DNA of 60,220 nt, counting the filler, from Hausera hauseri (Eukaryota), in NCBI GenBank assembly GCA_046269625.1. It is 10 parts of 10 records of this genome, joined end to end, with 100 filler letters (N's around TTAATTAATTAA, not from the genome) between each part and the next. Parts side by side here need not be neighbours in the genome. Positions count along the whole stretch, not along the records: positions 39,151 to 43,437 come from JBJURY010655997.1; positions 43,538 to 47,692 come from JBJURY010731101.1; positions 47,793 to 55,814 come from JBJURY010814309.1; 7 more parts are not named here. One strand, written 5' to 3'. The number at the start of each line of letters is the position of its first letter. The stretch's first letter is position 1. Below the pieces are notes generated by a model. The model was not told the origin of the DNA and searched no databases. It saw nothing but the letters and a program-made list of their open reading frames with translations. Made by a program: the position numbers and the translations under genes. Positions 9,504-58,900 of this stretch are shown here, piece by piece.

Positions 9504-9652
9504 CCATTTCTCATCCCCGCAAATTTTGAAATCATATTCCAGATTGATTAGAGGAATTTTGAATGGTTTTTTGTTATGATTAGTGTTACGCGGGTGGATA
9601 CTATTACTATTAGCAGGAATATATTATAGTATATTAGGGGCTGCTTTATTGG

Positions 9653-14393: not shown

Positions 14394-14431
14394 ATCTCGA
14401 TGATGATGATGATGATGAAGCCGTTTGTTTA

Positions 14432-20335: not shown

Positions 20336-20864
20336 ATGTATTTCTATGTTATTTCTCTGTTCAAAACTTAAATTCAGATAGGTTATAATAAAAATAATCA
20401 TGGGCTATAATGGAAATTGTACACGTTTATTACAAATGACTTCAGTAACATGGCAGTAATTTGTACATTGCAATATGATAATACTCACGAAGTAAATGTC
20501 TATTGTTTACAATGAAAACAAACCAGTATGAACAAAATTTATATAAATATTGATGCAAATTTATTTCACATTTTTCTTCTTTAAACAATGTCTTTGGAAA
20601 ACAATTCAGGAGGTGACAGTTCCGTGAGACTCACAAAAGAATCAAAGTACANNNNNNNNNNNNNNNNNNNNNNNNNNNNNNNNNNNNNNNNNNNNTTAAT
20701 TAATTAANNNNNNNNNNNNNNNNNNNNNNNNNNNNNNNNNNNNNNNNNNNNACGCAATGGTGTTATTTCAGATCGGCATAAAGTCCGAGAATCATATAAA
20801 TGGTATGATGTCCAAAGTTTATTAACAACTCGACGGGGGTTCCGAGAAATTTGTCCCAAATTGA

Positions 20865-26600: not shown

Positions 26601-29600
26601 TGAGTTTGTTTCTTGTTTCACTATCCCTTCACTGGTTATAACTTCGCCCAGTCTTGTGTTCTTTCGTAGTCTTCTTTCTCTATTGGTCGTATTACAAATT
26701 CGTAAATGAATTTTTCCTTCTCTTACTTTGTCTACATGAGGCGCTATTAAAATTTCATATTTTTCCATCACTTGTGCAAAGGGTTCAAAGCACACCTCTG
26801 TTGATAGTATTGAACTTTCTATCTTTCCAGGCACTATTATTTCGGATCGGGGTGGTATTATGATATCTTTTGTTAACGCTACCTTTCCTCTACTTTTGTC
26901 TTCGTCAAACATTTTCAATTGGCTGGTTTTCACATCTATATACACATTTTCTAATTGGCTTAATACGTCACACCCGATTAAGATTTCGTTCGTTAAATTA
27001 TCGGCTATTCTTATCATATGTTTCACGATTTGATTGCCGATTTTAATATTTGCGTCAAGAACCATTTTTATTTCTTCTTCCGTACCAAACGCTCCTACAT
27101 TTATTAACGTAGTCTTTGGTCTCCGTAACTTCCTTTTCAATTCCTTAGGTAGTAGGCTTTTTCCCATTATCGTGGTGGTGGATCCAGTATCTAATAGAGC
27201 TATCATGGGATATCCGTTCACTTCGATTTCTATTTCTGGCCTTATAGATGACCTTTCTTCTTTGTCGTCGGTCTTATACGTAGGTTCATGTCTATATAAT
27301 CTTACGCCTTCTTCGAAGTCTTGTCGCATTTGTAATACTTGATCTGTTGGATACAATCCTGCATGCACTACGTATCTAGGAGCTGAAGGATTCGCTATAA
27401 GTTGTTCATTATATGGTTGTCCATGATACTCGTCTATAGGATCTAAATGCGGTAGATCGGTCACGAGCTTGTGTCTGTATTTCGATTTTCGTGTCTTTAA
27501 CATTATTTGTCTAATATTAGGTATTCTTTTATGTTCTGTCTTTGTCCTTCCTTGATCATAGTGGGTGTCATCATTATCAGGTATGCTATACACAGATTCT
27601 TTATTATCTCTCTTCTGTAATACTTTCTTCTTCCATCGTGCATCGTGATTCGCTAAGAAGCAACTTGCTACAGCTGGTATCACTGCTATCAGTATTTTCC
27701 ATGAACACCCTACTGCTGCGTGTATTCCATATGCTTTACCGAGGGCCGTAAATATTGTTCGTAGCGCGCTAATAATGAAATATATGGCCAGAAAACCCGA
27801 CGCTGCTTGTCCAAAATATAAGAACTTTCCCCACATCTTCTCCATGACATTTCTTGTTACTTTCTTCAAATAATCTTTACCCATAAGGTTTTCCCATTGT
27901 GGTGATCCTTCGCCGTCCCACATGACTCTCCGAGTCAGTTCGGTTATTACTCGTTGTCTTTGTTGTGGGAATAGTAACATTCGTCGGTAATCCTCTAAGT
28001 TTTGTTGGGTATATATTCCTCCTTGTGATATTTCTGTCAATGGCTCGAATTTCTGGTTTCTTTGGAGGTTAATCAAACTCAGTGTCTCTGGTTTAGACAC
28101 TGGTTCTCTTTTCGGCATCCTTATCCATTTGTCATTATCGATTTTAAACATTGGTGACATACTAAAAGTGCAGTTATATAAGGGAGTGGGCTTTACATGT
28201 GCATCAAGGAGTATCCTCGTTACTGGCATGACATATCGCGTTTCTGACTGGTAGACAACAGGTAATTCCATTATACATTCTTCCGTAGGTCTGATTGATA
28301 CTTCCACTTTCTTACATTCTATAGTTATTAAGACCTCGCCCATCACTCGTCCGATAACTCCGTCGCCAAAAGGTAATACTGGCGCTACCATGTCCGGATT
28401 CGTTATCACCAACGCCATTTTATTACGCATTATTTCGTAATTTAACTTGCATTCATTCATTATTATTTCTCGGTATAAACCTCTGATCTCTTTCCTTACG
28501 TAGTTGATCAGGAAATCTATTTTATTGTCAAAATATTGAGTCAGCTTTATGTCTTTCTTATCTACTTTAGTCTTCGCTCCTATTATTTCCTTTCTTGATA
28601 GGTAGATGCCCTTATAATTAGTCTTTGACATTTCTTCATTACATTTAGTTATCACACCCGTAATTTTAAATCGCATCATTTCTTCTGGATTCTCTGAATA
28701 GACAATTGTAGCTACTTCATTCATCTTAACTTCCTTTGTTCCCTCTTTATACGTTGCCGTCTCTTTTTCTGCTGTCTTCCCTACCGTCTTATTAAACTTT
28801 CCTTCTTTCAACAATGTCAACTGACATTTGCTTGCGGTTGTTTCCCAAGTCATTTTTGACTCTCCCGTATCGCATTCACCATTATCGTATTCACATTCGT
28901 TCATCGTTGTCATCAATTTTGTTTGAGAATCGAATAATCCTTCGTATTCTTTTAACTGTACCTGATAATCTTCTATGGCCACTGTTCTAGGTGCGATAGT
29001 GCCTCCAACGTCATAATCCACTCCTCTACAGGTTCCCTCCATTGTCTTATCTATCCGTCCGGCTCTAAAAACCCTCGTGTATTTTACTCTGTTTCTTACT
29101 GCCGGTATATGTGCATTCTGTATGGTTATAATGCCAATCTTAAAGGCATCCTGGCATTCTGCTCGGGATATTATTATCGGCTCGAAGGGTGTTGTAGGTT
29201 CAATTATGGCTGAATTTCCTGAGTAATATGCACAATTAAATAAGAAGAATGATTTCTTTACATAGCATTCTCTAATCTTTGTTTTTATAAATTCGGACTC
29301 TTGATATACCCAGTACGCAAGGCCGCTGGTGGTTGTCAGTTGTTCTGGGTCGGCTTCTGGACATTTTTCTAAATCAACCAACGAATACTTTTGTCCTTCT
29401 CTGGGTTTGGAACAGTCATATGCTATAATTCCTACGGCTTTTGGCAACAACAATGAGGTGATTAACAGAATTTGTATGATTTCCATTATTGACATGCCCG
29501 TTATACCTGTCCGAGGCATCGTTGCTTGTGTCCCCGTTGATCTATCTCTTCCTCGTTCTTCCGTCCTGGTTATGTTCGTCATCAGACTATTGAGCCATCC

Positions 29601-32045: not shown

Positions 32046-32140
32046 TCCAAAAGGTATATTTTCTTCTTTTTGGTATATTGTCCCTTTTCTGGTAGTTATT
32101 TTGTTTCTGTTTATCTATAGGTCCTAACAAATTTATAGTG

Positions 32141-32159
32141 TTCCCGGGTCACGGCACCA
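32141..32159 (-). promoter_or_regulatory. primer binding site, tRNA-His
   Basis: Minus-strand TGGTGCCGTGACCCGGGAA is complementary to the tRNA-His 3' end (...GUCACGGCACCA), 3 nt after ...AACA. Confidence 0.9.
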
Positions 32160-32162
32160 GTT

Positions 32163-32351
32163 TGTTCAATTTTTCCTTTGTGATAAATTATTATAATGAA
32201 AATAAAGATATAATATTTTTTTATCTCTTTGAACAATTTAAGCGTGGAGGTTGGGAGAGCAACTATGAGGTGTATCTTACCTAAACAAGTACGTAATGTG
32301 TTTCAAGGAACGTGAATGACGTTAGACAATTCGTTATTTACTTAAGGATTA
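32163..32351 (-). repeat. 5' LTR, partial (U5 end)
   Basis: Ends in AACA just before the PBS. Cut by the linker. Confidence 0.8.
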
Positions 32352-33825: not shown

Positions 33826-35118
33826 TTATGCCACAAACGCCAGTAACACTTGTCTGGTTTTGGAAATTTCAATTATAGAGTCTTGTTTGGCATACACCAC
33901 GACTTGTAAGGGATCGGGCATCACGGCGGAAAATTTAAACTCTAGCGAAAGATGTCCGTTTTTCAAAAGGCCCCCGTCCAAAAGGCTGGGACTTATATTG
34001 AACGTGGAGAGGGCATAACAATCTTTAAAACTTTTGTAGTCGACATTGCAGCTGGCATCCTTACCGATCAGACCCATAGCTAGATTGGTTCAGAAAAAGG
34101 CTCGAGCGTAATGTTCGCGATCGAAATCTACCATTTACGGCTTCCCCATGGCCGTCCTCCCATCGACGGTGACGTTCAAGTACGTCAAACCAAAATGTTG
34201 AAAGTTGAACCGATTGTTTCTGTAGGTGCCGTTAAAAGCCGAGAAACTTACTATCCCAATCACGACGCGCGTCGGTGTTTGACTGAGGCAAAGATTGTCT
34301 TGAATGTGCGACAACATTCCTCTGGGTATGGACAATGTCTTTATCGCGACTCGTTTGATGGGGTATTTCGCGTTCACTGTAGTCAATGCTTTTTCGTGGG
34401 CCAGAGAAATGGCCGGATTTAATTAGGTTTTCCTGACCAGCAGGACGGTGCACGTTATAATTGATTTATAACCGAGCACAGGATCGTCGGCTATGAAGTT
34501 GAACGAGTCTTTTGAAGGGTTGAGTTTGATCTTTACGTCCACAGTTCAGCATGTAACGACCTTGGGTGAAGATGTCGCAGTGTAACTTTCCCATCATATC
34601 CACTTCTCGACTACCCGCAACCAACTCCCGACGCGTTTTTAGTACCACGTTAGAATCGGCTTTAGCTTCATCGAGAAATTTTGGCGTGTCGCTGTAGTAT
34701 AGAACTTCCGTCAGGGACCCATTTTGGCTTCCCGACCGTAATTGAAAACGGATTCGAGGTAACATCTGCAAGGGTAAGTGTTTTCGCTCGCCATGATCAA
34801 CGTGTCCTTCAGGGCGACGTCCACTTGTGAAAAGAAACTGTGCAGATAATTGTTGACCGGGGCCACTTCAGCACCATCAGGTAAATTGTTGCCGTTGGCC
34901 AAAGCAACTTTGGCTCTCACGTGTACAAAGGTATTAAACAAATCTAGACACTCTTTGCCGCTTCCTGATATTACAAATTCTATGGGTACCCCGGGAGCGA
35001 GAGAAGCGAGAGGGTGAATTTCAACAAACAGTCCTTCCTCTACCGCCGTTTGTGTTGGAGGAGCGCTAACAAATCAAAACCTGAATGGAGGCATTCGCTC
35101 GGGGTGTATCAAAGCCAT
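33826..35118 (-). pseudogene. Polinton major capsid protein, frameshifted
   Basis: 'PPTQTAVEEG..IHP..PIEF', 'APVNNYLHSFFSQVDV', 'LHCDIFTQGRYMLN', 'AKYPIKRV', 'FNFQHF'. Confidence 0.92.
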
Positions 35119-38466: not shown

Positions 38467-39289
38467 AAAAACAACATAATCACATATTGCTTTTTCTTCC
38501 TTCATTGTATTTGTTTTTTATCTGCTTTAAAGTGGGGAATTTAAGGCTTCTTGTCGTCTGTTATTTTTGGCTGTGACAGAGAGCCTATTGTGGTTCTGCG
38601 GTTTCAGGTGCAACCCCTGCGGCCGGTGCAGCCTCGGCCCAGCCATCGTTTTTTAACACAAGGGAAACGTCATTACATGACAATTTCTCTTAACTTCCTA
38701 GATCTTTATAAACCTTCAAATACTTTGTCATCTTTATCTAGTGTCGATAACCATTAAACCACATGGTTTGCCGAATTGTGCTTTCAATTTTAAAACTTCA
38801 TCGGCTTCTTATTTATGCTCAAATTTCCAAAAGCCACGCAACAATAAAAACCAAATTGTTTAAAAATCCAAAAGGAAATTATTTTTCGTGTATAAACAAA
38901 AAAATAAAAAATGTTTTCCGTTTTGCAATTTCCGTTACGGTAAAGATTCTGTTTTCACACTTATTACCCTCTCATGTAGACCAACCCAGTTCACCTACAC
39001 AGCTTGTTTCCCCTATCTCTTCTTCTACTTCTTCCTCCAACAAATCTTATNNNNNNNNNNNNNNNNNNNNNNNNNNNNNNNNNNNNNNNNNNNNTTAATT
39101 AATTAANNNNNNNNNNNNNNNNNNNNNNNNNNNNNNNNNNNNNNNNNNNNAACGAAACCCCAGATATTTTCTGTGCTAGGTTCAGGTAATCCTTGGGTTG
39201 CCCAACCACAATTTCGAACCCGACAAAGTTGAACCAGCGCAACTTCCATAAAATGTTAATTATCAAAAACATTATTTCTGAGATACATT

Positions 39290-42200
39290 CTTTCATTACA
39301 GGATGAATCGTGTTTCTAGTAGCGAATAAACATGGTTTGACATATTCATCCCAGTCATCTTGGCGTTCATTAACCATCGTTGCTAACATGTTTGTCAATA
39401 TTCCGTTGAACTTTTCTACTGTTCCATTAGTTTGTGAATAATTCGGGTTGTTTATATTTGTAATATTCGAAATATTTTTGATATTTCTGCCATGACTTCT
39501 CATATGAAGTTTGGGGTTTGATCTGTCAATAGTTTAGTAGGCGTTCCATAATTAAAGATCATCTCTTCTACGAAGGCTTGAGCGATAGTCTGTGCCTTTT
39601 GATCTTGTACCGTAATTAATACGGGCAATCCAGAGAATAAATATACAAACACTAACATGTATTTATCTCCATTCACTGTCATTGGCATCGGTCCCAAAAT
39701 GACAATAGTTGAAAATTTCATTGGAGCTGGTGGACATTCCAGTGGCTTAAGCGGGACCTTAATTTTTGATCCTGTATTTCTACGTGTAGCACAAATATGA
39801 CAGCTTTTGCACCATTCTTGCACATCTCTTTGCATATTATGCCAGTAATACTTCCTTCTTAATTTGTCCAAGGTTCGTTTTACCGATTGATGTCCCCCCA
39901 TCACGCCATCATGATACTGTGTTAAAAGTATCTTTATGTCTTCTTGCGGGACAACTACAACTGGTTTTCCTTTATAGCTATAGTATAATATATCGTCTTT
40001 AATCTCGTAATTTTCGATAATTTTTTCGAGATGAACATGGAGGTTGGTATCGTTTGGTATAGTTTTTTTTCTCATGTACTCTCATATTTGGTTTATTTGC
40101 TCGTCATTCTGTTGTCGCTGTAATAACAGTTTTTCCTGATCCATAATACTCCAAATGGCTGCTATTACACTTGGTTTTTCTTTTTTTGTCCGTATCTTCA
40201 GGCATTCTCGACAAGTAATCTGCATTTATATTAGCCTTTCCAGTTATATATTCGAACTTGAGATCATATTGCTGGAGAAGCATTGCCCATTTCATTGGAC
40301 GACAATTTGGGCTTTTATGGTTTTTCAGCCATTGTAATGGCTTTTGATCAGTATATACAACGATTGGTTTTGTCTCCGATAAGTACTGACCATATTGTTC
40401 CAGTGCCATACAATCGCAGGTAACTCCCTCTCAATCGTAGAGTAGTTTCTTTCGTGTTTTCGTAATTTTTTTCCTCCAAACAATATTGGATGTTCTTGTC
40501 CTTGGTCATCTTTTTGTGATAACACCACTCCAATTCTAACTTTACTCGCATCTGTAGCTAAGAAGAATGGTTTTGACATATTTGGATAAGCTAGTATTGG
40601 CGGAGCTAGTAAATTATCTTTTAGCTCTTCATATGCCTTTTGGCATTCTTGAGTCCATATGAGTTTGGAAGTTTTTTGTAGTAGTGAATATAACGGAGCG
40701 GCTACTTGTTGATAATCCATAACAAATTTTCAATAATAATCTGTAAGGCCAAGGAATTTTGTAACACCTCGAACTGTTTTTGGGATTGGAAAATCCTGGA
40801 TTTTCTTGATTTCCCCAATCTGAGGACTAATGCCTTCTCTACTCACGGTATGACCTAAAAAGTCAACTTTGGTTCACTTTTGTATCAAGAAGTGTAAATC
40901 TTTCTAGCATATTTTTTGGGTGTTCTTTATGTTGTTTATAATCGGTTGAGGCAATTATAACGTCATTCACATAACAAATTATATGTGGAGCGTCCATTGT
41001 AACTATATCAATTGCTGTCTGGAAAGTTGCTGGGGAATTCGGTTAAATTCGTAATGCCCATCCGATGTCACAAACGCTGTTTCCTGTTTATCTTCTTTTT
41101 GTACTTTTATTTGCCAAAAACTTTTTTGTAAGTCCACCGTAGTGAATAACATCTTATCTTTCAGTTTGTCTAGTATTTCATCGATTCTAGGTAATGGATA
41201 AGTATTGTGTATCGTTACTTCATTTAAAGCCCGATAGTCCACGCACATTCTTATAGATCCGTCCTTTCTTTTACCATTACTATCGGAGCTGCCCAAGGAG
41301 GATTACTTGCTCTAATTTTATCATAATGTCTCATTCAGGCTATTATCTCTTTGGCCTTCTCTCTTTTGTCATACTTGAGGCAGTACGGTCTCTTCTTGAT
41401 GGGAATCTCCATACCTTGTTTTAATTTGATTTCATGTTTGATTACAGGTATTACACCCATGTCGTATTCATCTATTGCAAATATATCTTTATACTGCTGC
41501 AATATTTTAACTATGCCTTCCTTTTCCGCTTCCGTCAGTGAACTTTCTTTGCCAAACAAGTCACAGTCATTCCAATTGATAGGAGTCTTTACAAGTTTTG
41601 TAATCTTATTTTTATTAAGATGGGTTTTAAGTTTGTTCATTGGCTCGTTCTCGATACGTATTCCGCATTTAACTTGAGGTTGCCGTCGTTGTCTTTCTAT
41701 GCGTTCTGACAATTCTTCCACAGTAGATACGATGGCTTCTGTCGCATTATTACCTGTCTTTCACGATATATACATAGGCAATTCGTGTCCCTTTTCTCAA
41801 CAACTTTGATTTATCACAGACGTTAGCAATTCGAATAATTACTTGTCGTTCTTATTACTTATCGTTCTTTGGTTGGCTTCTGCAACTTTTCCTTTAATTG
41901 TTCCGGCATTTGCTTTCGTGAGATCATTAAAGATGAAGCTCCAGTATCTAGTATAGCAGTAATAAGATATCCGTCTATCCAAATTACCGTTCTTGGTATA
42001 GCTTTTCCTCCATATATGCTGGTTATTAAGTCTTTCCTTGGAGCGAACGGATAAAAAGTTAACTTTATATGTTTTGGATCGCAATTGTCCGTGTCACTAG
42101 AATAACGTACATCGATGTATTCGTTTGGTGAGATGAAATGTTGTTCCATTGGGTATTCATTCCATCTTTTCATTTGTGGGATGTCTGCCAGTAACGTTCT

Positions 42201-43437
42201 TTTTTTTCTACGAGTCGTGATTAGATTCCATGTCTTTTTAGTATCTCCAAACGACTGCGGTTTTATCTTGTCTATTGGTGGTGTATTGTCATCTTCGTTA
42301 GAGTCGGCTTTATTTTTGTTTTTCTGCTTCCACTCTGCATCTTTCTTTATTAAAAACAGCTGGCTATATTTTGGATCAATGCGTAGACAATTTTCCAGGT
42401 ACAACCAGCGGCTTGTTTTATTCCGTATCATTTTGTTATCACTGTTAAGATTGCTTTTACAAATGCGAATATGTAATAAAATCCTAACCATCCTGAATTG
42501 AACTGACCAAACCACACATACCATCCCAATGCGGTTGCAAATATATACTTAGCAATTTTCTTTGCATAATCGGGTACCATTAAATTTTCCCAGTTAGCTT
42601 TTCCATTATGATCAGCTAAGACTTTCATGGCCATTTCTGTCAAAACTTTTTGTCTCTGTTGAGGGAATATCATCATCCGCCTATGATTTTCGATATCTCG
42701 TTCAGAGTATACTCCCATTTTTACTAAATCCGTCAACGGTTTATAAGTTTGTTCAGTCTTTAAGTTTATTAGGCTGATTCTTCGTGGTGGAGTAATCTGT
42801 TCCTTGTTAGGCATTCGTATCCATAACCCATCACTTAATCGATATACTGGTGACATTGTATATTTGCAATTTTGATACACATGAGGCTTTTCCATTGGGT
42901 CTAGTAATATCCGAGTAACTGGTTGTAAGAAACGCGGTTTTTCTTTGTACAAGATTGGCAGTTCCATAGAACATTCTTTAGTAGGTCTTAATTTAACTGC
43001 CACTTTCGTGCATTCAAATGTCACTAGAGTTTCGCACATGGTTGGTGCAAATTTTCCTTCTGCATCGGGTAATTCTGCAGGATCCTTTATTATGCCGTCC
43101 GTTATTGCCGATAAATATATTCGATTCCTAATTATTTCTCTGTTTAATTTGCAGTCATTCAAGATTATCTCTCGGTACATAGTATAAAGATTCTCCTGCT
43201 GAAAATAATAGATAAAGTCTATCTTATTATTAAAGTATAAATGTGGTTTTACTTCCGATTTATCGATCATCCTATTAGCTTTGAGTACTTCAAAGGTGGA
43301 TAAAAATACTCCTTTATAATTTGTTCGATATACTACTTTATCGCATCTTTTTGTAACTCTTTCTAATTTAAATCTCATTCCTTCGTTAGGATCTGCTGAG
43401 TACCCTATAGTAGGGGTTTCGATAATATCGGATACTC
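39290..43437 (-). mobile_element. decayed Gypsy element, second family with glycoprotein-PR-RT-RH-IN order
   Basis: Glycoprotein ORF 42428-43378 aligns with the 27650-28680 segment. 'ILDTGAS' (~41950), RT 41003-41296, RH 40104-40720, IN 39290-40075. Confidence 0.92.
42350..43437 (-). pseudogene. env: chuvirus-like glycoprotein, C-terminal half
   Basis: 'TNYKGVFLS', 'YFNNKIDF', 'NDCKLN', 'ECSMELPI', 'PVTRILLD', 'FPQQRQKV', 'FGQFNSGWLGFYYI'. Confidence 0.85.
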
Positions 43438-43537
43438 NNNNNNNNNNNNNNNNNNNNNNNNNNNNNNNNNNNNNNNNNNNNTTAATTAATTAANNNNNNN
43501 NNNNNNNNNNNNNNNNNNNNNNNNNNNNNNNNNNNNN

Positions 43538-43655
43538 TAGGCACAGGACCGCGGTTTCCCGATCCGACTCCGACATCTTTATAAAGTCGAAGTATCTCTC
43601 GCATTTTCCAATAAAGGTATCCACGTTATCACCTTTCTGGAATTCTTTGGCATTA
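43538..43655 (-). pseudogene. possible retrotransposon Gag N-terminal fragment
   Basis: An alternative frame reads 'KEFQKGDNVDTFIGKCERYFDFIKMSESDRETAVLC'. Confidence 0.4.
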
Positions 43656-45231
43656 ATTTCTTCTCGAAGAAGTCTCTTGAAGCGTAATTCACCATGTTAG
43701 TAAATCGCGTTACTACCATTCCGACCTCAACGTAATTCGATGATTGTAAGATTAAATTCTGCATTAGAAATTTGTTATAAAAGTTGGTATAACAATTATC
43801 TCCTTCACTCATTAAATGATTCTTCTTTTCATCCTTCCTTGAATTTCCTGACATTATGTTGGATGTTTATTGATTTAACTTTGAATTGAATTAAACATTA
43901 ATATTCGTTTAAATTCCTCCTCACAATTATTATTGTTTTTCTTAACAAATTTGTAAAAATAAAACTGACAAATAACATTTCTACTAAACAGATACAATTT
44001 ATGTACAGTTTAAGAAGGAAATAGTGAAAATTGTTAAATCATTCATTAAGAAAAATGCAGAAAAACTGTAAAACATAATTAAGAAGATGCACATAATACT
44101 AGTTAAAATTAAATAAACAAAATTACATTAAATTCGTCAAATTTCGAATCAATGTAAACTAATAATACTTTCTTTTTCTAAAAATATAAAAAATAATAAT
44201 GTCACACTATTTCACTTACATCACCGTTTATTTCCGAGGAATGCATCCGATGCATAATTAAGTAGAACCAAGCCGCTACTACATTTCAATACGTTCATCC
44301 AATAATCAGTTACTAATTTTGATTCATCAAAACATTATTAGTAACTGTCTATAAATATAGCAAAAGTTCATTTTTATTAAGAGTTATTTTTATCATTCTT
44401 ATGCGAATACATCCAAAGTTCATACAAATTCCATATTATTTTAATTATGTTTAAATAACATCTAAATAATTATTTCTGAAGTTTTTGAAATACAGTATAG
44501 GAATAAAAGATAAAGAGCCTTCTAAAACTTAAGAAAAACGTATTATTGTGCGCTGCACCGCGCCAATTTCCATTTGCTTATAGGTTTTGGCATATGGGGA
44601 ATCGAATGACTTCATCATATTCTTCGAATAACGTTGATGTGCATTGTCAATTAGCACTTTGCTAATAGGTTCGATCAATAGTGCAAAGTGCTGTAGTCGA
44701 TTTGTGAAATGTGCAAAAGTGCGCATAGCAACGGTGCCCAAAGGCACCGTCGCCATGCACATGTGCCGATCGATAGTGAAGCGGGTGCACTATCGATTAG
44801 CACATGTGCAGTATCGATTTATCGATTACCCACCGTGGGAGTGGAGCCGAATGCCCATTTTTCCCTACTAACTGCGTACGTCATCAAAATAATATTTACA
44901 ATTCTACAACATTATTATTGATCATTCAATGCTTATCAAATACTGAGTGAACTTATCAATGTAATCTTATTACGAGTAGCTTTACAAACAAAACGAGTTT
45001 ATTTCATTTAATGAAATAAAAAATAATCGCGAATACTAGAATTATAAAATAGTCGAACATATGAACATATAGACCACACAAGTATTTGTATTAAGAGTCT
45101 TTCTTTGATACTTATCGGATGAATAAATGTTATTTTAAACAAATATACCAGTCGTCATAATTTTTAACCGTTGTTAAGATTTCTTTTTAAATTGCAAAAC
45201 ATACCAAATATCTTCCATTCGTGAATTAATA

Positions 45232-46535
45232 CACGGTCCGACAAATAAATTTTAGGACTGGACTTATAAAACGCTATAGAAGCAAAATATTTTCACTTTT
45301 ATTGTTTTATTTATTCAAAATAATTTCTTTCTTAAATAAACTTGTTGCATCGATCCAAAAGAAATTCAAATGCATGATTCAGCCCATTTTGTGGTATTTC
45401 CTTTGATGTCTGTGTTGAAGCTGTTTGAATGGTCAAAATACCTTCGAAAAAGCATCCTTTCTACATCAATTTCAATTTTGGGAATAAAAAGAAGTCGCAC
45501 GGAGTCAAATCGGGTAAATATGGCGGATGATTAACCACACAGACTTGATTTCGAGCCAAAATAGGCGAACAATAAGTGAATTATGAGATGGCACTTTATT
45601 GTGCAACAGCGACCAATTTTCTGGATCTGGATATTCGTAACGGTTACTACAGATTCTGTCCATCAAACGCTTCAAAACTTTGAGATAATAGTCGCTGGCA
45701 ACTGTTTGAACAGAGAGACCGAATTCTTTGTGGATAATTCTTTCGCTATCAAAGAATGTGATGAATATTGTTTAATTTTGGAAGACACTTTTCATATTTT
45801 TTGCTACTGGTAAATTTTTCGACCTTCATTACTCACGTTGATGCTTGGTTTTTGGATCATATTAGAAGCACCATGTTTCCTCACCCGTGTTAATTGATTT
45901 CAGGAAGTTTGGATCATTTCTGGCGGCTGTAACGAAGCCTCTGGAGTGGCTAACTCTCATTGACTTTTGTTCGTTATTCAAAATGTGTGGAACAAATTTA
46001 GCACAGATCTTTGTTTTACCTAAATCCTCGTGAAGAATGGTCCGAATCGTCTGTCGGTTGATATTCAGAGACTCATCCATTATTTTCAAGGAATCACTGC
46101 AGTCATTTGCAACAAAATCACATACTTTTTCGATCATTTCTGGGTTTCGACTTGAAATTGGTCTTCCCGTATGTTTGTCATCTTCTAGTGACTTTTTGCA
46201 ACCAAAAATCGTTTATGACACACGAAAACATTTGATCGACTTAAACAAGCATCGGCATGCACTTGCTGCATCAATTGGAATGTTTTTGATGCATTTTACC
46301 CAGTTTTCGCACTGAATTTAAGGATCGATCTTCGTTCCATGATAAAATTTCAATATCGATTTAAACTTGTTTAGGAAGAACTATCATAACTATTTCATTT
46401 GTCATTCAATTTAATAAATGAGGGCGCGTTAGATAGAAGAAAAATGTATCCTTCGAATGATGTTAATTTTAAACAGATGGCACCACTAATTGCTGAGATA
46501 TGGCGCTAGTCTTACAAATTATTTGTCGGACCGCA
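45232..46535 (-). mobile_element. mariner (DD34D) transposon, full length, decayed
   Basis: ~28-bp imperfect TIRs (CGGTCCGACAAATAA..GACT), TA on both flanks, 1304 bp. Transposase remnants 'KICAKFVPH', 'NTGEETW', 'HPPYLPDLTPCDFFLF'. Confidence 0.93.
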
Positions 46536-46759
46536 TATATATCACTTATAATAAATGTAATATACGTCTTATGTAGTACTGTACATTAATTCTTTGTTTC
46601 TAAAAATTAACCATAATATATAATTTTTCTAAATTTTAAGAGTCATAATTTTTCATAAGATTTGTTTCAGATAAACACTATTTGTTACACAAATTTTCTA
46701 TAGTATGCAAAACTTTACATAATCTACTTCTTATTTCACCATACAAAGTTTTTATTAAA

Positions 46760-47240
46760 TGTCTTTTTGAAGTATTTATTTAAAAAATACATTCGTCTAA
46801 TTTTTTGACCTACTGCAACGAATTCTGAAACTGTGGGCCATCATACACTCAGTCGGATAACAATTTCCAGACGTCTTCAACGATGTTCAAATCTAGATTC
46901 CTTGACGACCAATTTACCACATTCATATTACTGTGATAATAAAAATATTTAATTTTCTTGGCCTTATGTATAGCGCAAATGTTTTCTTGGATGAAAACAT
47001 TTTCTCCATGATTTAATTTCGCAACTGATACAAGAGTACTTTTCAATAGTTTCAAATAATCCCACGAATTAAATTTCTCATAGAAGATTTTATGGCACAA
47101 AAGCCCATTACGCTTTACCATCAGCCAAACCAACATACTTCCACCTTGGCATTGCCGCTTCTGACTTACATATTTTTCTGAATTTGACATATATGTTTCT
47201 CAATCGTCCGGACCATCCAGAGAAAATCTTTTTTTATCCT
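46760..47240 (-). pseudogene. Tc1-like transposase fragment
   Basis: 'FSLDGPD', 'GGSMLVW', 'FIQEN..IH', 'W..RNLDLNIVEDVW'. Confidence 0.85.
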
Positions 47241-47792
47241 TGAAGTATTAAAAAGGGTAAAATGAAATTGTATAATTAAAAAACCTTTGAAGTTAGTGAT
47301 TCTCAATTAAATAAAATAATCTAAATTGAAAAAGAAAGTTAATAAAATATTGATTGTGCTATTAAGAAGAGTGCTAAAAGTTATCCAAGGAAAGCAAATA
47401 AATTTGTGAACATAATTATACAAGATGTAAAGGGGGTCATATTAAATGTGTGAAATGAAGAAAATATCAATAACAATCTCAAATGTAAACGGAAGGAGGT
47501 AACCATAATTAGAATGAATATGGAAGAAAAAATGGAAAAAAGATTAAAATGAAAATGATATTCGTGTAATTAAAAGAAAACTTTCTCATTCAGTTATGTA
47601 ACAAGAATAATTTAAAGAATGAAGACGAGTGTCAAATAAGAAAATTCCAATAATTATAATTAGGTGGAATGAATAAAAATATTTTCTCTCTCNNNNNNNN
47701 NNNNNNNNNNNNNNNNNNNNNNNNNNNNNNNNNNNNTTAATTAATTAANNNNNNNNNNNNNNNNNNNNNNNNNNNNNNNNNNNNNNNNNNNN

Positions 47793-50700
47793 TTCCATGC
47801 TTCTCGTAAGCTGCCTAAAAATGGTTTTACACGAGATCCTCTATCTTTTCTTGTAGCACATATTTTACACGAACGTACCCATCCTTCAATATGTTTATTC
47901 ATTTGAGGCCAATAATATTTTGCGGTTATTCGCTTCAGTCTTATTTAAAGACGGTTATCCAGCTAAGTGTGAATCGTGTTCTTGTAGCATGAAAGCCTTG
48001 ACTGGTGTGGGTACAAGGATCAGTTTTCTCTCCGACTCTTAATCGTAAGATACCATTTTCGATTTCGAGATTTTCTCGGTTCCTTTCATGAAATTTCCGA
48101 ATTTGGCTTGATATTGAATCAGGTACTTGTCCATTGATTAATTGCTTGACTTGAACAAGAAAGGAATCTTGATTCTGCAAGGTCTCAATATTTCGTACTT
48201 GAATTTGACGTTGCTCTTGTAGCATCTCATTGATAATTTTCTCATTCAGTTGTTTGTTATTTTCATTATCTAAAGGCTTATAAACTGCAGCTACAATCTT
48301 ATCATATGGCATTCTCGAAAGCGCGTCAGCGTCTATGTTTTCGTTGCCGGGACGATATCGATATTCAAGATCATAATTCAAAAGTTCCAACTTCCATCTT
48401 TGGAGTCGACTTGGTACATGTCTATTGTCAGAGCGTAAAGACAAAAGTACCTTATGATCAATAAATATTATGATTTTATGACCATAAACGTAATACTCGT
48501 AATGTCGTAATTCGTCACAAATAGCTAATAGCTCTAATTCAGTGGTTGAGTATTTTCGTTCTGAATTATTTAAACTTCGTCCTCCGTAGGCGATCACGTG
48601 TTCTGTTGTTTCTTCTGCATCTTGCTGAGCTAATATATAACTAATTGCTTTTATGCTAGCGTCAGTTTTCAGGATAAATTACAATGAAAAATCTGGGTAT
48701 CTCAATATAGGTGCTGATACCATTCGTTTCTTAATCTTGTCAAATGCGTTTTGATTCTCTTCTGTCCATTCCCATTTTTGATCCTTTCTTAACAGTTTAT
48801 ATTGAGGTTGGTTAATTTCTGCAAAGTCAGGTATAAATGTAGCATAAAATCCTCCTAATCATAATTAAGCCTTCATTTCGTGGACATTGGTTGGTGGGGG
48901 ATATTCCAATATTTTGGATATTAAATCAGGGCTAGCCGAAATTCCTTGGTTAGAAACAACAAATCCGAGATATCTAACTTCTTTCTTGCACCATTCGCAT
49001 TTCTTCGGATTTAACTTTAATTTAGCAAGTCTAATTCGATCGGATACTTTTAATTCACCTAAATGTGCGGTCCATGTTTTGGATGCGATAAGAATGCCAT
49101 CAATGTATGATAATCCTCGTACTCCTTTTAGTACTAGGCGAATAAATTCTTGAAAGAGGTAGGTGCTGTTTTCAAACCAAATGGCATACGGGTAAATTGA
49201 TAGACTCCGGTATGCGTCTTAAATGCATTTTTTCATCTGTCTTCTGCTACGGGGATTTGCCAAAACCCACTTTGTAAATTCAAGGTAGTAAAATATTTAC
49301 AATCCTTTAATTCATCAATGATATCCCGAATTCTTGGAATTGGATAAGCATGATTCATTAGATGCTTGTTCAAAGTAACATAATTTACACACAAACGATG
49401 TTTAGTCGTATTAGCTTTCTTGGCCATAACTATGGAAGAGGGCCATGGTGATTGACTTGGTTCTATGATACCTTTATTGAGCTTAGCTTGAATTTGCTCT
49501 TCGACTTCCTTTTGGAGTGCTTTTGGAGGAGGGTACCATTTTGATATTGTTTGTCGTAACAAATCTTTCTTTTCCTGTTAACGGGTCAATTATAAATGAT
49601 AATTTGAATTTAACTAAATCAGTTCGTCCGATATCAGTTTCATTCTTTGCAAAAATGTCGAGATACTCAAAATTGAGGTCTGAGAAATGTTTTTGATATT
49701 CGTCTGATAGATTTTTCTTAGCTTTTGCAAGAACAACGTTTAATATATCTTCGGCATTTTCTTGTTCTGTAGTATAGACGGTTGCAACTTTGTTATCGTA
49801 ACTCTCTCGACGAGTCGTTTCAAGAGCGTGTCCAATTTTTGTTTTTGTGAATAACGTGACATATTTTGGGGTTGGATTTAAAACTTCTACTGAAATAGTT
49901 CCTCGAATCACATTGACGCAATAGTGTGGTAATATAAGTCCATTTCGAAGAATTTTAGGTACAAATTCAATGATACAATTGTCTGAAAAATTTGTTTTAG
50001 CATGTATGACCGTTCGTGAGCTGGGTGGTATTTTTTCAGTATGTCCTACCCAGATGTCTGCTTTGTTGTAATTAGGTTGTTTATCTTCATTATTTGGACA
50101 GATCGATCCTGATTGTAAGTTTATATGTACACCTTCCAATTTTTGTAACACATTCATACCCAAAATACATCGCGGATCCAGAGTAACCATTACATCAAAA
50201 GTTATTTTGACTCTCTGTCCACAAATCCATGGTTCACTTTTCTGTTATCCATAAGGTTTACTGCATTGCTGAAAAGCCGAAGTGGTACCTGGTGAGTCCT
50301 TAGTAACCAATTTTATTTTAACTTGTAATTCTTCTGGAATTGCATGTTTCGCTATCAACGCAACATTGGCCCCTGTATCTACCATAGCATTCAAATCGAA
50401 AGTACCAAAATGAACTGTTGTATGTGGTCTATTGTCTCGTAATAGCTCAAGGAACGTTAATACATCATTATGATCGTCAATATGTGGTTCCATCAGTGTA
50501 TAACTAGACGAACAATGTCTGTTGGTACTATTAGATAAAATGACTGTTAAACTCTCCAGTGATTGGGTATGAATTTCTGACGTTTTATTTTCATCTTTGA
50601 GTTCAGTTAATTCTGGATACCAACTAATATGCTTCGATGTTGTCCGTTGCTTATTGTTAAGCTCAGAAGTAGCTAAATGAGATTTTCTGTCTGATTGAGT

Positions 50701-53700
50701 TTCCATTGGCCTAGTTACTTGATGATAAGGTACTGAGGATAATGTACCCATTTTGGGTGAAACTGGTAACGTTACTCGATTGTTTTCCATATTTCGTGTA
50801 ATGATGGATTGCCGGATCTCCTCTTGAGAGTATTTTGGTAAGGTTCGTAATCTTATGTATTCTTCTCTTTTTGCGTAAGGATCAGTTAAATCTGTTAAAT
50901 TTGATAGTTTACAAATAGGCATTGTTTTATTATCATATGGTGCAGCAGGTAATTTGTGTTTATCCTTTTTCTTTGGCTTCATAAACTTCAATTTTCTCGT
51001 ATCCTTGGGAACTCCTATCGTAGGATAATACTTAGGAACTTGATGAGGTGTCCTTAGGAAATTGTTTCTCTAATTTATAGTCAACATGTTTTTCTAATTT
51101 GCCTCACCATTGTTTCTCATGATAGGCCTTAATAAATTTGCAAAGTGGGGAAAATAGAGCTCTTATTATGCTCAGCGACAGTCCCGTTAAATTAGAAATC
51201 TCATAGGCATTTAATACAGAATTAATGCAGACTTTCAAGGTTTGTATAATGAAGTATATGGCCAGAAAACCTGAAGCTCCTTGGCCAAATTTCAAGAATA
51301 CACCCCACATTTTATACCACAAATTTGAAACGATTTTAGAATAGGCGTCAGGTGTCCATAACCGATCCCATTTTCCTTCTCCGGCTGTGTCGTCGATTAC
51401 TCGATGTATTCCACGATTTACTATTTGTTCTCTTTGTCTAGGATATGCTAAAAATTTCACAAATGAATCAATTTCCTTTTTGCTATATAGTGCTGATTTG
51501 GATGCGTCGGTAAACATGTTGGTTTCAATCGCATGTTTTAAATTCGTCATCGTTAATTTATTTGGTTTTTCTTTAACTCTATCACGATCTGGTAGTCTAA
51601 CCCAAAGGTCTTGGCTATCATACTTGATAAACGGCTTATTTAATGCTGAACAATTCTGGATTTCCGTGGGTATTGTATGGGGTGCCAGGAGCACTCTAGT
51701 AATAGGCTGAACGTATCGTATTTCCTCGTTATATTTAACGTGTATCTCCGAATAACATGGAGTGCCGGTAATCAACGGCAATTCTAATCGTTTACATTTG
51801 TAGGTATATAACACTTCTCCTAGGACTCTGTCTTGAATTCCTTCACCGAAAGAAAGGGTTATCGTGATCATTTCCCGATTTGATGCATAGATAGTCAAAC
51901 GGTTTCTTAGTTTCAAAATTTACTTTACAAAAATTTTGGATTGTTTTGGAATATATTTCTTCAATTGTTTTATGGGTTAGATAGAATAGAAAGTCATCTC
52001 GATTTGCAATGTAATCGGCAATATTTACTAACTGAGCTCTATTAGTGGGAGAATTATCGGCTCCTTTGATTTCTCTTTTATATATGAAGTAATTATCGTA
52101 ATTCGTACTGAATACTTGCTGTCCACATTTTGTAATTGCATTCTGTTGTATAAGTTTAACTCCTCCTTTGATATCCTTGGATATTACAATCTTAGGCGTC
52201 TTTATTTCTGGAATAACTTGAATATTAGTATGCTCAAAATTAGTCTCATAATGGCGGGCATAACGTTTTCCTGTAGTGACATTGAATTCTCCTTTTCTGA
52301 TTTGTACTAATGTACAATCGTAACTTATGGGAGATGTCCACACTATCGTGGATGTTCTAGTATGACAATGTCCCGTTTGCAACTTACAAAAGGATGCGTC
52401 TGCCATTGTATTTGTGCTAGTCTTGAAGACGTAGGTATTATCCTTAATTTCGACTTTGTGCTGGTCAATCACTACGATACCTGCTTCGATGCCTTTTCCG
52501 GTGTCAAAATTTCCTCATCTTCAGTTTCCTTTTTCATCTTTATATCCAGTGATCCATTTTTCTTGTTGAGTTACTTGCCCTTTTGTGGCGGTCAATAGGA
52601 TTTCTCCCCATTTCAGTTGCTGGGTTTTTCCCGCATCTCTACAATATGTTGGGTTTACTGTCACGTATTTAGGTATAGTGGTAGGTTTAATGTAAGAGTC
52701 GTGGTGTAGATGACCGCAATGAGAAATAGTACGGGATACGCGTAGAGAGCATTCCAGTCCTTTTATGTGTAACATAGTTTAATCATAGTAAATATATAAA
52801 TTCTGCGTTTGAGTTTCCAATTTTCTCGGAAGAGCGTCCGGGCATGACTGGAGATCCATCAATGAGTAGTAACTTCCTTCATATATTTGATTGCAATCAT
52901 AAGCTAATATTGTTCCGGTCCTTTTAAAATTGGAAAATAATACCAATAAGAGTAACGTAAATAGGATAAATATTCCATTGGACTTTACACCATCGCTTTT
53001 CTGAATTTCTTCCTGTATTTGACTGGTCATTTTCTCCATTACAATGGGAACAACCTCTTCTTGAGATGCATTTAAAGTAATTTCTTGAATAACTTTTTCG
53101 ATATTTGTCGGTTGTTTCGAGTAAATTTTCGTTTTTATTGCGTAGAAATAGGTCACTCCATTTTCCATATTGCGGAATTATTGATTTGCTAGCATGAGTG
53201 ATTTTGCCTGTTGTGTCTTTCAATCTGTTTTCATTGAGTGTCTCATATATTAACAACATTATCACCTTTTCAAGATTTACACGAGATGGTTTCTCTAGTA
53301 TTAGTTGTACGATATTGTCAATTGTGAAGTTTTTCCACTGTGAATTTTTCTTAAGATTCTTCATAAATTTCAGCTGTTCTTTAACTTGTTTCTTCCATTT
53401 TGGAGATCGGGGAGTGATCGAATATTTTCCAATATCTATATAATAGATTTCTCTAGCTAACTTCTTAACTTCTTTATATTCTTTGTATAATTTTGGAGTT
53501 TTATAATCCGTAATTTGGATAGCGAAATTTTTAGCAACAGTTATTAATTTGTTAGGTCTGCCGCGCTTATTAAGGTCGAACAATGTTTTCCTTACTATTG
53601 GCTGTACGATTTCTTTATTGTCTATATCAATAAGTGGTTTCTTCAAATTTTCCGTTGTTGCTTCTTTTAAATGTTGTAAATAAGCTGGTTTACATTGGAT

Positions 53701-55814
53701 TTCCATAATAGATTCATCTTCATGTATATCTTCTTTTATTATTTTCCGTTTTGCTTCCTCATGAGTTAATTCATTTGTTGGCATAACTTTAACGGCGTTG
53801 ATATTTGTGGGTATCATTCCAACATTTATTAAAATTTTTCTGAGTCTAAGATTCTGTTATAATATTCAATCCTTAAGTGTTTCATAACTCTCTTGGTTTG
53901 ACACTTGATCATCTGTTCAAGGTCCGCAACTCGATTATCTAGACTCATTTCTAGATCAGGAAAGACAATGCCGTTGACATGGGGTCGAACAATAATTTTT
54001 TGATCTACGTAGTCTTGATTGCTTAGCAAATACTTTCCTAATAGTTTCAATAGCGTTAGTGGAGTAGCGTTATATCTCCATTTATCTGCCGCTTTACTGG
54101 CTAACTCCTCTGCCGCTTCTAAAATTTCTTGAATATTTCCATCCTTGTTGAGGTATGCCATTAACAAGTTGTCTAACTCTTCAGGAAACTCCTGTAAAGC
54201 ATTCACTCTTGAGTAAAGTTGGTCGAGTCTCTATCTCATCGTCCATTTCTTTCTCTGGGAATCTTTCAGGATGGATGTTGTCTAAATCACACTCGCTGAA
54301 ATCGGTAATGTTGATGTCATCTACGAAACTATAATCAGTTGTATCACAGAGAGTATCTCGTACTACGTCGACTGGTATTTGCATTTTGTTTCTACTAATT
54401 CTAATGTCACTAGGTTTGCATAAGCGCATCTTTTTTACAGTAGGTTTTCTTTTGATTTTGGGTTGTATTGTTTCAGTTAGATCGGCAGTATTACTCTCAA
54501 TTTCTTCTGGGTGAATTGCTTTTTGTACCTGTTGTATCATATCTGATCGTTTTGGCACTGGTCCTTTTCATTTTTCCATTCTTTCTTTTAAGTCTGATTC
54601 TTCATCAAATATCAACGGAGGTTCGTCATCGGAAAGAGGTTCGCTTCCTTCTTTTCTTTTTATTTCATTTATAAATTTCTTGCAATCCGGTGACAATTTG
54701 ATTCCTTTTAATCTTTTGAGAAAATCGTTAGTTGTTTCTACTCCTTCGATAAGTTCTTCGATGGTGACTGGATGTATCATTGGCGGGCATTCATCATTAA
54801 TATATTTTATAATAATCAAAATGAATTCATTTTCAGTTTTGTTCTCTTCCTTATCCAAATCTGTCTCGTTGGATATGCATTGGTACAATTCATTACTTTC
54901 ATCAAGAATTTTAGTGAGCTTTTTCTCATTTTCTTCGGTACTTTTTATGCCGAGACTTTTCAGTTGTTCAATTAACATGTTAATTCTCTTCTTGAGAGTT
55001 ATCGATTTGTCTGTAACTGATTTGTGAAGCAACATTTTACAGTGTTTTTGTTTCTAAGACTTTAAATAAGTACGATACTATGGTTTGGCTTAATTTAATC
55101 CGTATTTCCTTAATAATTTCTTTCTTTTCAGAGTTAATTGGCGGAATTTTCGCATTTTCCAGTAATCGTTTTTGCTCTGTCCAAAAGGATCTTTCTTTGT
55201 CACTTAACTTTTGATCTAGAATATCATCGATTTTCTTAAGTTCGATTTTTATTTCTGATTCATATGTTTTACTCAACCATAATTCCATGTTAGTGCGAAT
55301 TTCTTTTAATTTCTCCTTATGTTCTTGTTTTATTTTCTTTTTCTTTAGCATAAGTAGACATAATTTGTCTAAGTAGTCGTTCTTTGTGGACACATCCTTT
55401 GTGAGGAGTAAGTCTTGTCCTTCCTTAATGAATTTCTGTATATCAATTTTTTCATCTTTTATTAACTGAGTTTCGTCCATCCCAATGGGAGTAACCTCAC
55501 CACTGCTGATTACTATTGGAGATGGTTCGATTCTGTAACTAAGAACTTTATCAATTACCGCATCGATTTGCTTATTAATCTTTTCTTGTCTTTCAACTTC
55601 TACTAGATGTGTAGGTTCCGGTACAAAGTCTTTTCACGTAATCTATAAATTTCTTTAATCAAATTTTTTTGTCATTTTCATTCATTGTATTTATACAGTT
55701 CTTTCTATGTAAGTGTTTATTAACTTGGATAACTCTAGTCCTTTAGGAATTTTCCCTTTGTTTATTTTCGCCAGATTTTTTTGTATCTATTCTCTAATCT
55801 TTGGTTGCATTTTC
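47793..55814 (-). mobile_element. decayed Gypsy element, third and more divergent family with glycoprotein-PR-RT-RH-IN order
   Basis: Long helical region 53000-55800, glycoprotein 51104-52980, PR 'MVDTGA' (50371-50379), RT ~48950-49560 (YIDG), RH 47941-48670, IN zinc-finger start ~47800-48000. Confidence 0.92.
51104..52980 (-). pseudogene. env: chuvirus-like glycoprotein, frameshifted
   Basis: Signal 'GIFILFTLLLLVLF', 'ILAYDCNQ..YSLMDLQSCPDA', 'LGEVLY..C', 'VQPITRVL', 'KMWGVFLKFGQGASGFLAIYFII'. Confidence 0.85.
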
Positions 55815-55914: not shown

Positions 55915-58900
55915 ACCAGTTTAAGCGGTAGAAGAAAGAAATATTTAAGGACAGCAGCAGCAGCAGCATTATCTTGTCAACAACAACAACTAATATGAAA
56001 CATCAGGCATCAACAAGTCTTGACGACTTAATCAGAAACAGTACCCAGCAGTAGCCGCAGCAGCAGCAGCAGGAACAGCATCAACAAAAACAGGAGGCCA
56101 GTATTCCCAACATTACAGTCAAGTACGATCTGAACAGATGGTACGCGGACATGAAGGTGTACATGTCGGCGAAAACAGCAACGCAATTGAAGGATGTACC
56201 CGCTCATTTGTGTAACCAGTTGGAAACAGGTGGCCAAATTCCAACACAAACACTACAAAGTGCAATATTATGCACTTGCAGAATTTGAAAATTTGGAAGG
56301 TGACAGGAAACACTGGTACCTGTCATATCAAGCCGTACCGTATTCAGAAGATTTTATTGCCAACGTAGGCGAAAAGCTAAAGGTAAAAATCGCCAACTAC
56401 ACTGAAAGGGATAGTGGATGGCGAATTATAAAAATTGTTACTCTAGGCTTTATCATAACAAAGTCGAGTGATATGACATATTTGTCTGGACGATCATTCA
56501 TACCGACACCTGCAGCTTTGAAGCAGTCTTTGGCAGTAGTGAATGTAAAAAATACCAACAATAAATACTGTTTTATTTACAGTATTCTCGCGGTATTGAA
56601 ATATTACGACGTAGACAGACATAGTGCATCTCGTCCAAAACAGTATCAAAAATATTTTTCCGAATTGGATTGCGATAAAAGCTGGATGCCGATGAAACTG
56701 AAATCTATTCCGACTTTTGAAAGACGTAATCCGACACTGGCAATCAACATGTTCCAGCATAACGCAATCGTAGAAATACCGGCGGATGAAGAAGGTTACA
56801 AAAATCAACATGTGGATATAATCTATCGTAGTCGGAACCCAAATGGCCGCCGCTCAGTAAATTTGTTGCTACTGAAACGAAAAAAAAGTACAATTACGTT
56901 GCAGCGGCAAATCTGGACAGACCACTGAACATGGAGCATAACCATTTACTCCAAAAACGGATACCGTGTAAATGGTGTCTTGTATGTCTTCATGGATTCA
57001 GGTCGGAAACAACATGGGAGAAACATGTGACTCTGTGGAGACAAAATTCATCGGGAACTACAATGTATGTCATGACGTCAAAAAGGAACTCAGGTTCACT
57101 GACTGGTCAAAAACAGACAGTCCGGCATATGTAATATATGCCAATATCGAAGCTATCTTACACAGCACAACATATATTACCAAAGATATGTTCCAATCGT
57201 CGTCGGCATGTTGGTTGTCTCAATGAAAGCCGCAGTTCATCAACCTCAATATTACGTTTCTCATGGCTGGAACTGTGTACGTAATTTCTTGCAGCAGTTG
57301 GAAACAATAATAGAAACGGAAATCGCACCCTGGTACAGTAGAAATAGCAATAAACCTTTGATGTGGACAGATGAAGATGAATACCTGAAGTTTGCAGTCA
57401 CAGATGAATGTTACCTGTGCCACAAAATATTACCGTTTGATGCACAGAAACGGTTCGTACCGGATCATGACCACTTTATTGGGCGATATCTCGGAGCAGC
57501 GTGCAATTCGCACAATTTGGCAAGGTGTGTGCGGCCATTCCTGCTGGTGATTTTTTATAACTTTCGGGGTTATGATTGTCACCATATTTTAAAATGAGCC
57601 ATAAACGGATTTCCGAACTGGGAACTATCCATAATTCCAACAATGATGGAGAAGTACCTGTCCCTATCGGCACGCATAAACCGGTTCCAGGTACGGTTTC
57701 TTGACTCACTGCAGTTTCTCAATGAGTCTCTAGGAAACTCATAAGTGCCTTGCCGGATGTGCCGCTAACGATGACGCAGTTCCCTGCGCATATTGCACGC
57801 AGAAAAGATATTCCCATATGACTTTGCTGTGTCGTACGAGCGGCATCAGACAACAGATGAATTGCCGCCACAATGGACCGGAATCACACAGGACAAGCAC
57901 CACAGAGCACAGGAAGCATGGACAGAGTACGGCTAATGAAACGTGTTGGAGTACAGGCTGCAGTACCTGAAAATGGACATGTACATGTTAGCCGATGTGT
58001 TTCAGACATTTCATGCTAAGGCGTTGGTGGACGATAGGCTGGAGCCGCTTAAATTTTACTCCATACCGGGGATGAGTTGGTCATTGGCACTAATGTTGCT
58101 GGACAGTAAAATTGACCTGTTGCAAGACCCGTAAATGAACTGACTATTTGATGTTGGTATTCGTGGCGACATGACATTTGTCAACAAGCATCACGTAACC
58201 AGTGATGACGATGATGATGATACAGTGTCAATATTGTACATCGATATTAATAACCTGTACGGCTGGGTGCTTTCGCCGTACGGTTCAATTGAATGGATAA
58301 TGGACAGACAAAAACTGGATACATTGCTGGACAGTCTGCCAGCAGCAGCAAACACGACAGAAAGCAGCTCAGTCGGCTACCTAATGGAAGTCGATCACGT
58401 AATACCAGATGAGCTGCATGATGCTCTGGACGAATTACCCGTGGCACCAATCAGTCAATGTCCACTCGGCGGCTGAAAAGTAAAGTAACTGCTCATGACG
58501 CATAAACCCAAATCGAATTACGTGGTTCATTGGCGTCTACTGCAGTTTTACATGCAGCTCGGTGCACGCGTCACACAGCTGCATACAGCAATCATATTCA
58601 ATCAGGCGCCTATATTCAAGGCATACATTGATGGAAATTCGGAGTTCGAAAAAGATTATTACAAGCTGAAACACAATTCACTGTATCAAAAAGCAGTGGA
58701 GAATCTAAAGAAGCGGCTCAATGTGCGCCTGTGCAACAACGAAAAGCGGCTGGTTACGTATACCAGCAAAGCACAGTTTCGCCGATCGATGCACATTGCC
58801 AACGGATTAGTCGCCGTATTTCTCAACAGGGCAGAAGTAGTACTGGACCGGCCAATCTACATAAGACAAGTAATACTAGATCTGGACAAGTTACGCATGT

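Follow-up and report, generated by a model that had tools for sequence, protein, structure and literature searches.

The DNA analysed here is a 60,220-nucleotide window from Hausera hauseri (GenBank assembly GCA_046269625.1) composed of ten contigs that are joined by artificial N44-TTAATTAATTAA-N44 spacers. Three of the contigs, c5 (20752–32351), c7 (39151–43437) and c9 (47793–55814), carry retroelement genes, all on the minus strand, in which a predicted viral-type glycoprotein precedes the protease (PR), followed collinearly by reverse transcriptase (RT), RNase H (RH) and integrase (IN), as assigned with Pfam. Contigs c7 and c9 are separated in the window by one unrelated contig, and c5 lies outside the range covered by the original prediction (39290–55814).

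The c7 glycoprotein is cut by the contig end, leaving the C-terminal ~60% (42351–43437). Its match to the Monjiviricetes_fusion family (PF24664) spans 43435–42431 (E = 4e-46), and the frame is open for 335 codons, with a stop at 42428–42430 and a frameshift near 42351. Downstream on the same strand is the N-terminal half of a retropepsin (41862–41996; RVP, E = 2e-4) containing a DTG motif at 41948. The remainder of this protease has been removed by an internal deletion, across which the local hidden Markov model (HMM) skips from position 46 to 180, and the RT–RH–IN segment (39264–41658; Pfam and alignment) contains stops and frameshifts. In c9, the glycoprotein and its signal-like stretch occupy 51107–52976 (PF24664 match at 51919–51107, E = 9e-40). 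They are followed by the protease (DTG at 50379) and a PR–RT spacer domain with one stop (49800–50430; Pfam and alignment), and by a broken RT–RH segment and integrase start that run into the contig end (47825–49514; Pfam and alignment). Upstream, c9 retains a weak helix plus ubiquitin-like domain (53838–54164; local HMM built from relatives, independent E-value (iE) 0.005). A candidate Bcl-2-like region at the expected position (53134–53409) gave a non-significant hhalign E-value of 0.24 and no match with the local HMM. Both c7 and c9 are dead copies.

The glycoprotein had been described as lying directly upstream of the protease. The order is as described, but the distance from FGQ to DTG is 188 codons in c7, 208 in c5 and 303 in c9. 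The recurring motifs are likewise all present: TNY (43324 in c7, 52106 in c9), PVTRIL or PITRVL (42922, 51706), PQQR or PRQR (42664, 51442) and FGQFNSG or FGQGASG (42511, 51289). They differ in diagnostic value, with [FY]GQ..[SA]G found in 18 of 22 element rows versus 1 of 59 other glycoproteins, and PxQR in only 5 of 22 versus 3 of 59. Glycoprotein identities are 44–45% for c5–c7, 32–33% for c5–c9 (608 residues) and 28% for c7–c9; the corresponding RT–RH values are 53%, 42% and 40%. Because identities are this low (28–44% and 40–53%), the three copies represent distinct families, as had been proposed, with c5 as the third.

The copy in c5 is intact. A single open reading frame (ORF) of 3270 codons (22305–32114; protein P0001) contains Pfam matches in the order Ty3 capsid-like domain, CCHC, PF24664, retropepsin, RT, RNase H and integrase. 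A primer-binding site (32148–32159) precedes the ORF, 3 nt after a CA, and is complementary at 12 of 12 positions to the 3' end of tRNA-His(GUG) as given in supplement 1 of PMC13524379. Gag is represented by a Ty3 capsid-like domain and one CCHC knuckle (31185–31952; Pfam E = 3e-4 each, the capsid match falling below the curated cut-off). The helix plus ubiquitin-like domain that follows (30165–30725) is common to 10 proteins and, weakly, c9; its best library match, Pfam ubiquitin, reaches only E = 0.03, in the relative P0037. Next is a helical Bcl-2-like domain (29535–30017), present just before the glycoprotein signal in seven proteins (c5 and six relatives). Its profile matches Bcl-2/Bcl-xL chains in the PDB (E ~8e-4), and its AlphaFold2 model (predicted local distance difference test (pLDDT) 75.6) retrieves the Bcl-2 family throughout the Foldseek matches listed, at modest E-values of 2e-3 to 1e-2 and a template-modelling (TM) score of about 0.5. 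The top PDB match of this profile is a designed repeat protein whose score is summed over weak repeats, and was set aside. The glycoprotein region (27615–29480; Pfam and hydropathy) comprises an internal signal-like helix, an ectodomain with 14 cysteines and membrane helices, and the PF24664 match covers residues 878–1520 (E = 1e-89). By eye, a hydrophobic signal-like stretch precedes [YF]DC in all 20 proteins viewed. The PR–spacer–RT–RNase H–integrase segment (23775–27242; Pfam) includes a conserved domain between PR and RT, the position of a dUTPase-like domain in Burro elements; no Pfam dUTPase match was found there.

The same arrangement occurs in independent proteins. All five matches among proteins of 1798–5723 aa place the glycoprotein ahead of the protease; three of these represent clusters, with 7, 21 and 4 members, and those of the clusters of 7 and 21 are about 3760 aa long. 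The full phmmer scan recovered 1236 relatives with E-values no higher than 0.001, with Gag- or PR-fused forms at the top ranks and stand-alone glycoproteins of ~650 aa after them. The one-ORF order is also found in long matches such as P0030–34, P0038, P0041–43 and P0045, and 20 of the 21 fetched proteins that combine the glycoprotein with a Gag, PR, RT or RH match have this layout. The exception, P0064, is a fusion of the glycoprotein to RNase H that falls elsewhere in the glycoprotein tree. A scan of IMG/VR with the glycoprotein gave two pattern matches, neither of which was confirmed.

The original prediction implied that the env-before-protease layout was new. This implication fails because the layout has been published (PMC6431247, PMC13524379), and c5, c7 and c9 are further members of a known group. 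In the planarian Burro elements, as described in the available text of PMC6431247, Gag, a ubiquitin-like domain, BCL2, Env, PR and RT share one ORF. The likeness of Burro/GYPSM1 to c5 extends through the single ORF, Gag, a candidate Ubi/SUMO-like domain, BCL2, Env, PR, spacer domain, RT, RH and IN. Burro Env matches mononegavirus fusion proteins, and Burro has a high copy number (PMC6431247), as the c5 family appears to have. The c5 polyprotein is shorter (3270 aa versus 4873–5140 aa) and has one CCHC instead of two or three; Burro also carries MATH, BIR and ankyrin domains, for which c5 gave no Pfam match (same source). Ankyrin is present in the relative P0002. Because c5 is without the Burro size (an ORF near 4900 aa, an element over 30 kb) and the MATH/TRAF, BIR and ankyrin cargo, we file it as Burro-like and not as Burro. 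The Burro-like features are an Env that c5 encodes between Gag and PR in the same frame, with c7 and c9 keeping this order in broken form, and a BCL2-like domain before Env in c5 and six relatives. Placement in Ty3/gypsy (Metaviridae) follows the PR–RT–RH–IN order and, in c5, the Gag capsid and knuckle (weak Pfam matches) and the tRNA primer site.

Other published elements also resemble the window copies. GAG-ENV-POL elements have been catalogued in Nematoda, Bryozoa and Platyhelminthes, with an argument for env–pol co-divergence, and are not monophyletic (PMC13524379, in the portions available). The errantiviruses of HSV/gB type (HSV, herpes simplex virus) in its Platyhelminthes C1a group have the same order and, by eye, ENV motifs in common with the window copies; their within-group ENV identity of 31–64% (12 pairs) is like that among the window copies. 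In the S. mediterranea ENV rows of this source, inspected by eye, [VI]YQE and TNY occur in 6 of 6, TNYKGIYLS and CDTGES are identical to c5, and C-x-TG is also common to both. Its main text, so far as available, makes no mention of a polyprotein, Bcl, ubiquitin, fibronectin or Burro, and cites non-canonical nematode endogenous retroviruses (ERVs) with ENV before POL. Anakin elements with a chuvirus glycoprotein share the Pfam glycoprotein family and have a BEL/Pao backbone, unlike the Ty3/gypsy elements of the window (available text of PMC7642597 and PMC10084718). Troyka was set aside, since the available text of PMC12440569 does not mention env. In P0116, which is not among the glycoprotein-tree rows, the glycoprotein comes after DUF5641, and the sampled stand-alone glycoproteins fall outside the Burro-like clade. 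The non-canonical nematode ERVs of Sacco et al. (2022) are reported to have a continuous gag-env-pro-pol ORF.

Taken together, the three copies, broken in c7 and c9 and intact in c5, very probably belong to LTR (long terminal repeat) retroelements of a likely Burro-like Ty3/gypsy type, whose single ORF encodes Gag, ubiquitin-like and Bcl-2-like domains, a predicted fusion glycoprotein, protease, RT, RNase H and integrase. Such a polyprotein would be made at the endoplasmic reticulum, with the chain alternating across the membrane. Gag and the ubiquitin-like and Bcl-2-like domains would be cytosolic, and the internal signal after the Bcl-2-like domain would send the glycoprotein ectodomain to the lumen, with a signal peptidase cut predicted just ahead of the conserved (A)YDC. 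At the transmembrane anchor the chain would cross back into the cytosol, and Pol would be freed there by the protease that the element encodes. After Pol, a second signal, a luminal repeat protein and a second anchor may follow. A signal helix that was kept could leave Gag and the Bcl-2-like domain attached to the membrane. Since Env lies inside one polyprotein with Gag and Pol, it would be made without splicing, and may allow particles to enter other cells by fusion.

The glycoprotein of the c5 family is under purifying selection. Contigs of four runs, none of which is listed as holding RNA, cover 28–30 of 30 c5 bins. Run X1 contributes 26,347 pieces matching c5; their number and their identities, mostly below 95%, suggest a large and diverse family. 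In a biased subset comprising the best-supported 40 of 3,989 sites, with contigs pooled at ≥80% identity and including run X1, which may be the source sample, 31 of 40 c5-family variants are synonymous. For the glycoprotein the count is 9 of 12, compared with 27% expected (P = 7e-4), giving a rough omega of 0.12. The proposal of an old clade whose glycoprotein was maintained by selection is thus largely borne out, with the limits that selection is seen in the c5 family only and on 40 variant sites, and that the c9 glycoprotein has decayed like pol. Selection shows that the glycoprotein is used, not which use it has, and transmission mode is described as unknown for most such elements in the available text of PMC13524379. 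The glycoprotein of this same known clade might therefore have been kept for another role, such as direct cell-to-cell passage or membrane anchoring of assembly. We regard this as rather unlikely, given that a signal and an anchor accompany a match to a viral fusion-protein family that is nearly full-length.

All element glycoproteins form a single clade. In the glycoprotein tree (83 rows, comprising the first 60 of 114 unlabelled rows, only rows of at least 430 aa, plus c7 and c9), 22 element rows and two unlabelled fragments make up one branch (SH-aLRT 99), within which c5, c7 and c9 group together (92). In the RT–RH tree (125 rows; 5 of 128 were dropped for low coverage), all 12 glycoprotein-bearing rows lie inside one 18-row branch (98), and the other six rows of that branch have no glycoprotein in the protein sequence examined. 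Among the 11 elements that have both domains, glycoprotein and RT patristic distances are correlated (Mantel r = 0.78, p = 0.0001), c5 and c7 are sisters in both trees (98/98 and 98.6/99), and the RT data do not reject the window trio (approximately unbiased (AU) test, 0.19). A single, old capture of the glycoprotein, then inherited mostly with pol, is likely. The congruence suggested as a check is found for the clade as a whole, but one split is in conflict: P0043+P0045 join P0042 in the glycoprotein tree and fall outside the core in the RT tree (AU test of whole topologies, 0.003 and 0.036; AU test of this split, 0.005 and 0.054). This may be a module swap or a long-branch effect. An exchange of glycoprotein modules between lineages by recombination, leaving pol and env with partly different histories, draws on this placement and is unlikely. 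The two rows are long-branched and are not window copies, the RT-side test is borderline (0.054), and the single glycoprotein clade and the distance correlation both argue against it.

The two dead copies differ in how their glycoproteins have decayed. In c7, 990 nt of the glycoprotein (43420–42431) contain no breaks, against about 10–12 in the next 3.2 kb, eight of which are listed in RT–RH–IN; taking 12 breaks, the contrast has P of about 0.04, calculated post hoc. Co-option of the c7 glycoprotein by the host after the element died could produce such a pattern. We consider it very improbable, because the contrast is weak and was drawn post hoc, the contig is cut short, and c9 has none: its 1861-nt glycoprotein contains three stops and one frameshift, and eight breaks are listed in the pol domains.

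An assembly artefact, or a separate viral insertion beside pol on each contig, can be dismissed for practical purposes: the contigs are short and no single run contig piece covers the whole of c5, but the fusion is in frame in c5 and in many independent proteins, including the clusters of 7 and 21 members, so that the argument against an artefact or one-off insertion stands.

Several points weigh against the Burro-like Ty3/gypsy assignment and its enveloped interpretation, in addition to the absent Burro cargo domains, the conflicting split and the composition of the selection sample. The likeness to Burro and S. mediterranea elements draws on published description and by-eye motifs, outside the trees and scoring, no Burro sequence being among the matches, and both large trees were built quickly under LG+G4 and contain long branches (c7, c9). 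The predicted glycoprotein has no significant match among PDB sequences. No direct repeat that could be an LTR pair was found on any contig, the contigs ending first, and no Gag was detected with the local HMM on c7 or c9.

The c5 polyprotein continues beyond integrase into a predicted second type-I membrane protein (22305–23687; hydropathy and local profile) with a signal-like stretch, a ~100-aa Cys-pair β repeat and a transmembrane segment at residues 3220–3238. The repeat, β-rich and with a Cys pair, is present in one to three copies in 9 of 11 tails examined (0 of 220 shuffles matched); judged by hydropathy and by eye, a signal-like stretch comes before it and a hydrophobic helix follows at the C-terminus. 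Predicted membrane proteins in this position also occur in P0004–6, P0032, P0034 and P0194–196. Pfam returned no match for this ectodomain and the single-sequence AlphaFold model reached a pLDDT of only 32, so the repeat is fibronectin type III-like only as a by-eye pattern.

The c5 ORF ends in a single in-frame TGA followed by CAA TTA (22304–22296), after which a 478-codon ORF2 (22301–20868) stays open; the whole region spans 20868–22304. Of the 6614 stop triplets in the window, 13 are followed by CAA TTA, which fits CAR YYA, the type I readthrough motif (available text of PMC13517186). ORF2 has one homologue (56%), with conservation beginning at residue 62, ahead of the first Met at 88; it includes an ISG20-like, exonuclease-like part (weak ISG20L2 match, E = 0.002), and its listed variants are 3 of 3 synonymous. 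Expression of ORF2 by stop-codon readthrough is possible from these features, and splicing or a non-AUG start are other possible routes. A literature search on CARYYA readthrough in retrotransposons found nothing. Neither the clade-wide predicted membrane protein nor the possible readthrough ORF was found in the available text of PMC6431247 or PMC13524379 or in listings on Burro, although figures, Repbase, Grohme 2018 or Sacco 2022 may show them. A more ambitious reading, which we offer tentatively and hold doubtful, is an enveloped retro-transcribing lineage with a two-protein entry machine made from one polyprotein. Ahead of Pol this machine would have a class III fusogen and, beyond integrase, a fibronectin-like protein for attachment; the lineage would also have a Bcl-2-like host modulator tethered to the membrane and, in c5, an exonuclease-like protein made by readthrough.

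Further variation is seen among the relatives. The polyproteins P0002–6, P0030–33, P0041 and P0195 each have two to four copies of a DTG/DSG protease, and in P0004, P0005 and P0032 one copy lies after integrase. In P0143 a glycoprotein of the same Pfam family is fused to immunoglobulin domains, and in P0064 directly to RNase H. The clade member P0034 is deposited as a protein of a Flavobacteriaceae metagenome-assembled genome and is likely animal contamination.

Elsewhere in the window, the end of contig 2 carries the beginning of a Gag that is related to the Burro-like clade (4436–4050, minus strand; E = 7e-15), with unannotated ORFs upstream (8073–6154, minus strand) that may be accessory ORFs. 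Contig 3, possibly another Burro-like fragment, has ankyrin repeats and a faint Gag-like match (iE 0.04) at 9623–9111 and 13698–13468 (minus strand). Contig 8 contains DDE transposase remnants at 47199–46852 and 46212–45865 (minus strand; DDE_3, E = 8e-5). A stretch of contig 1 recurs in contig 4 at 83% identity (1–812 and 13833–14599), contigs 1 and 6 have one protein in common (27%; 1675–2976 and 34714–35073), and contig 10 has an endonuclease VII match (57103–57594). Contigs 1, 4, 6 and 10 may be Maverick/Polinton-like.

The layout has been in print since 2019, and so by itself adds little. What the Hausera hauseri elements offer is a compact member that is still intact and whose glycoprotein shows measurable selection, so that the proposition that Burro elements are proviruses becomes testable.

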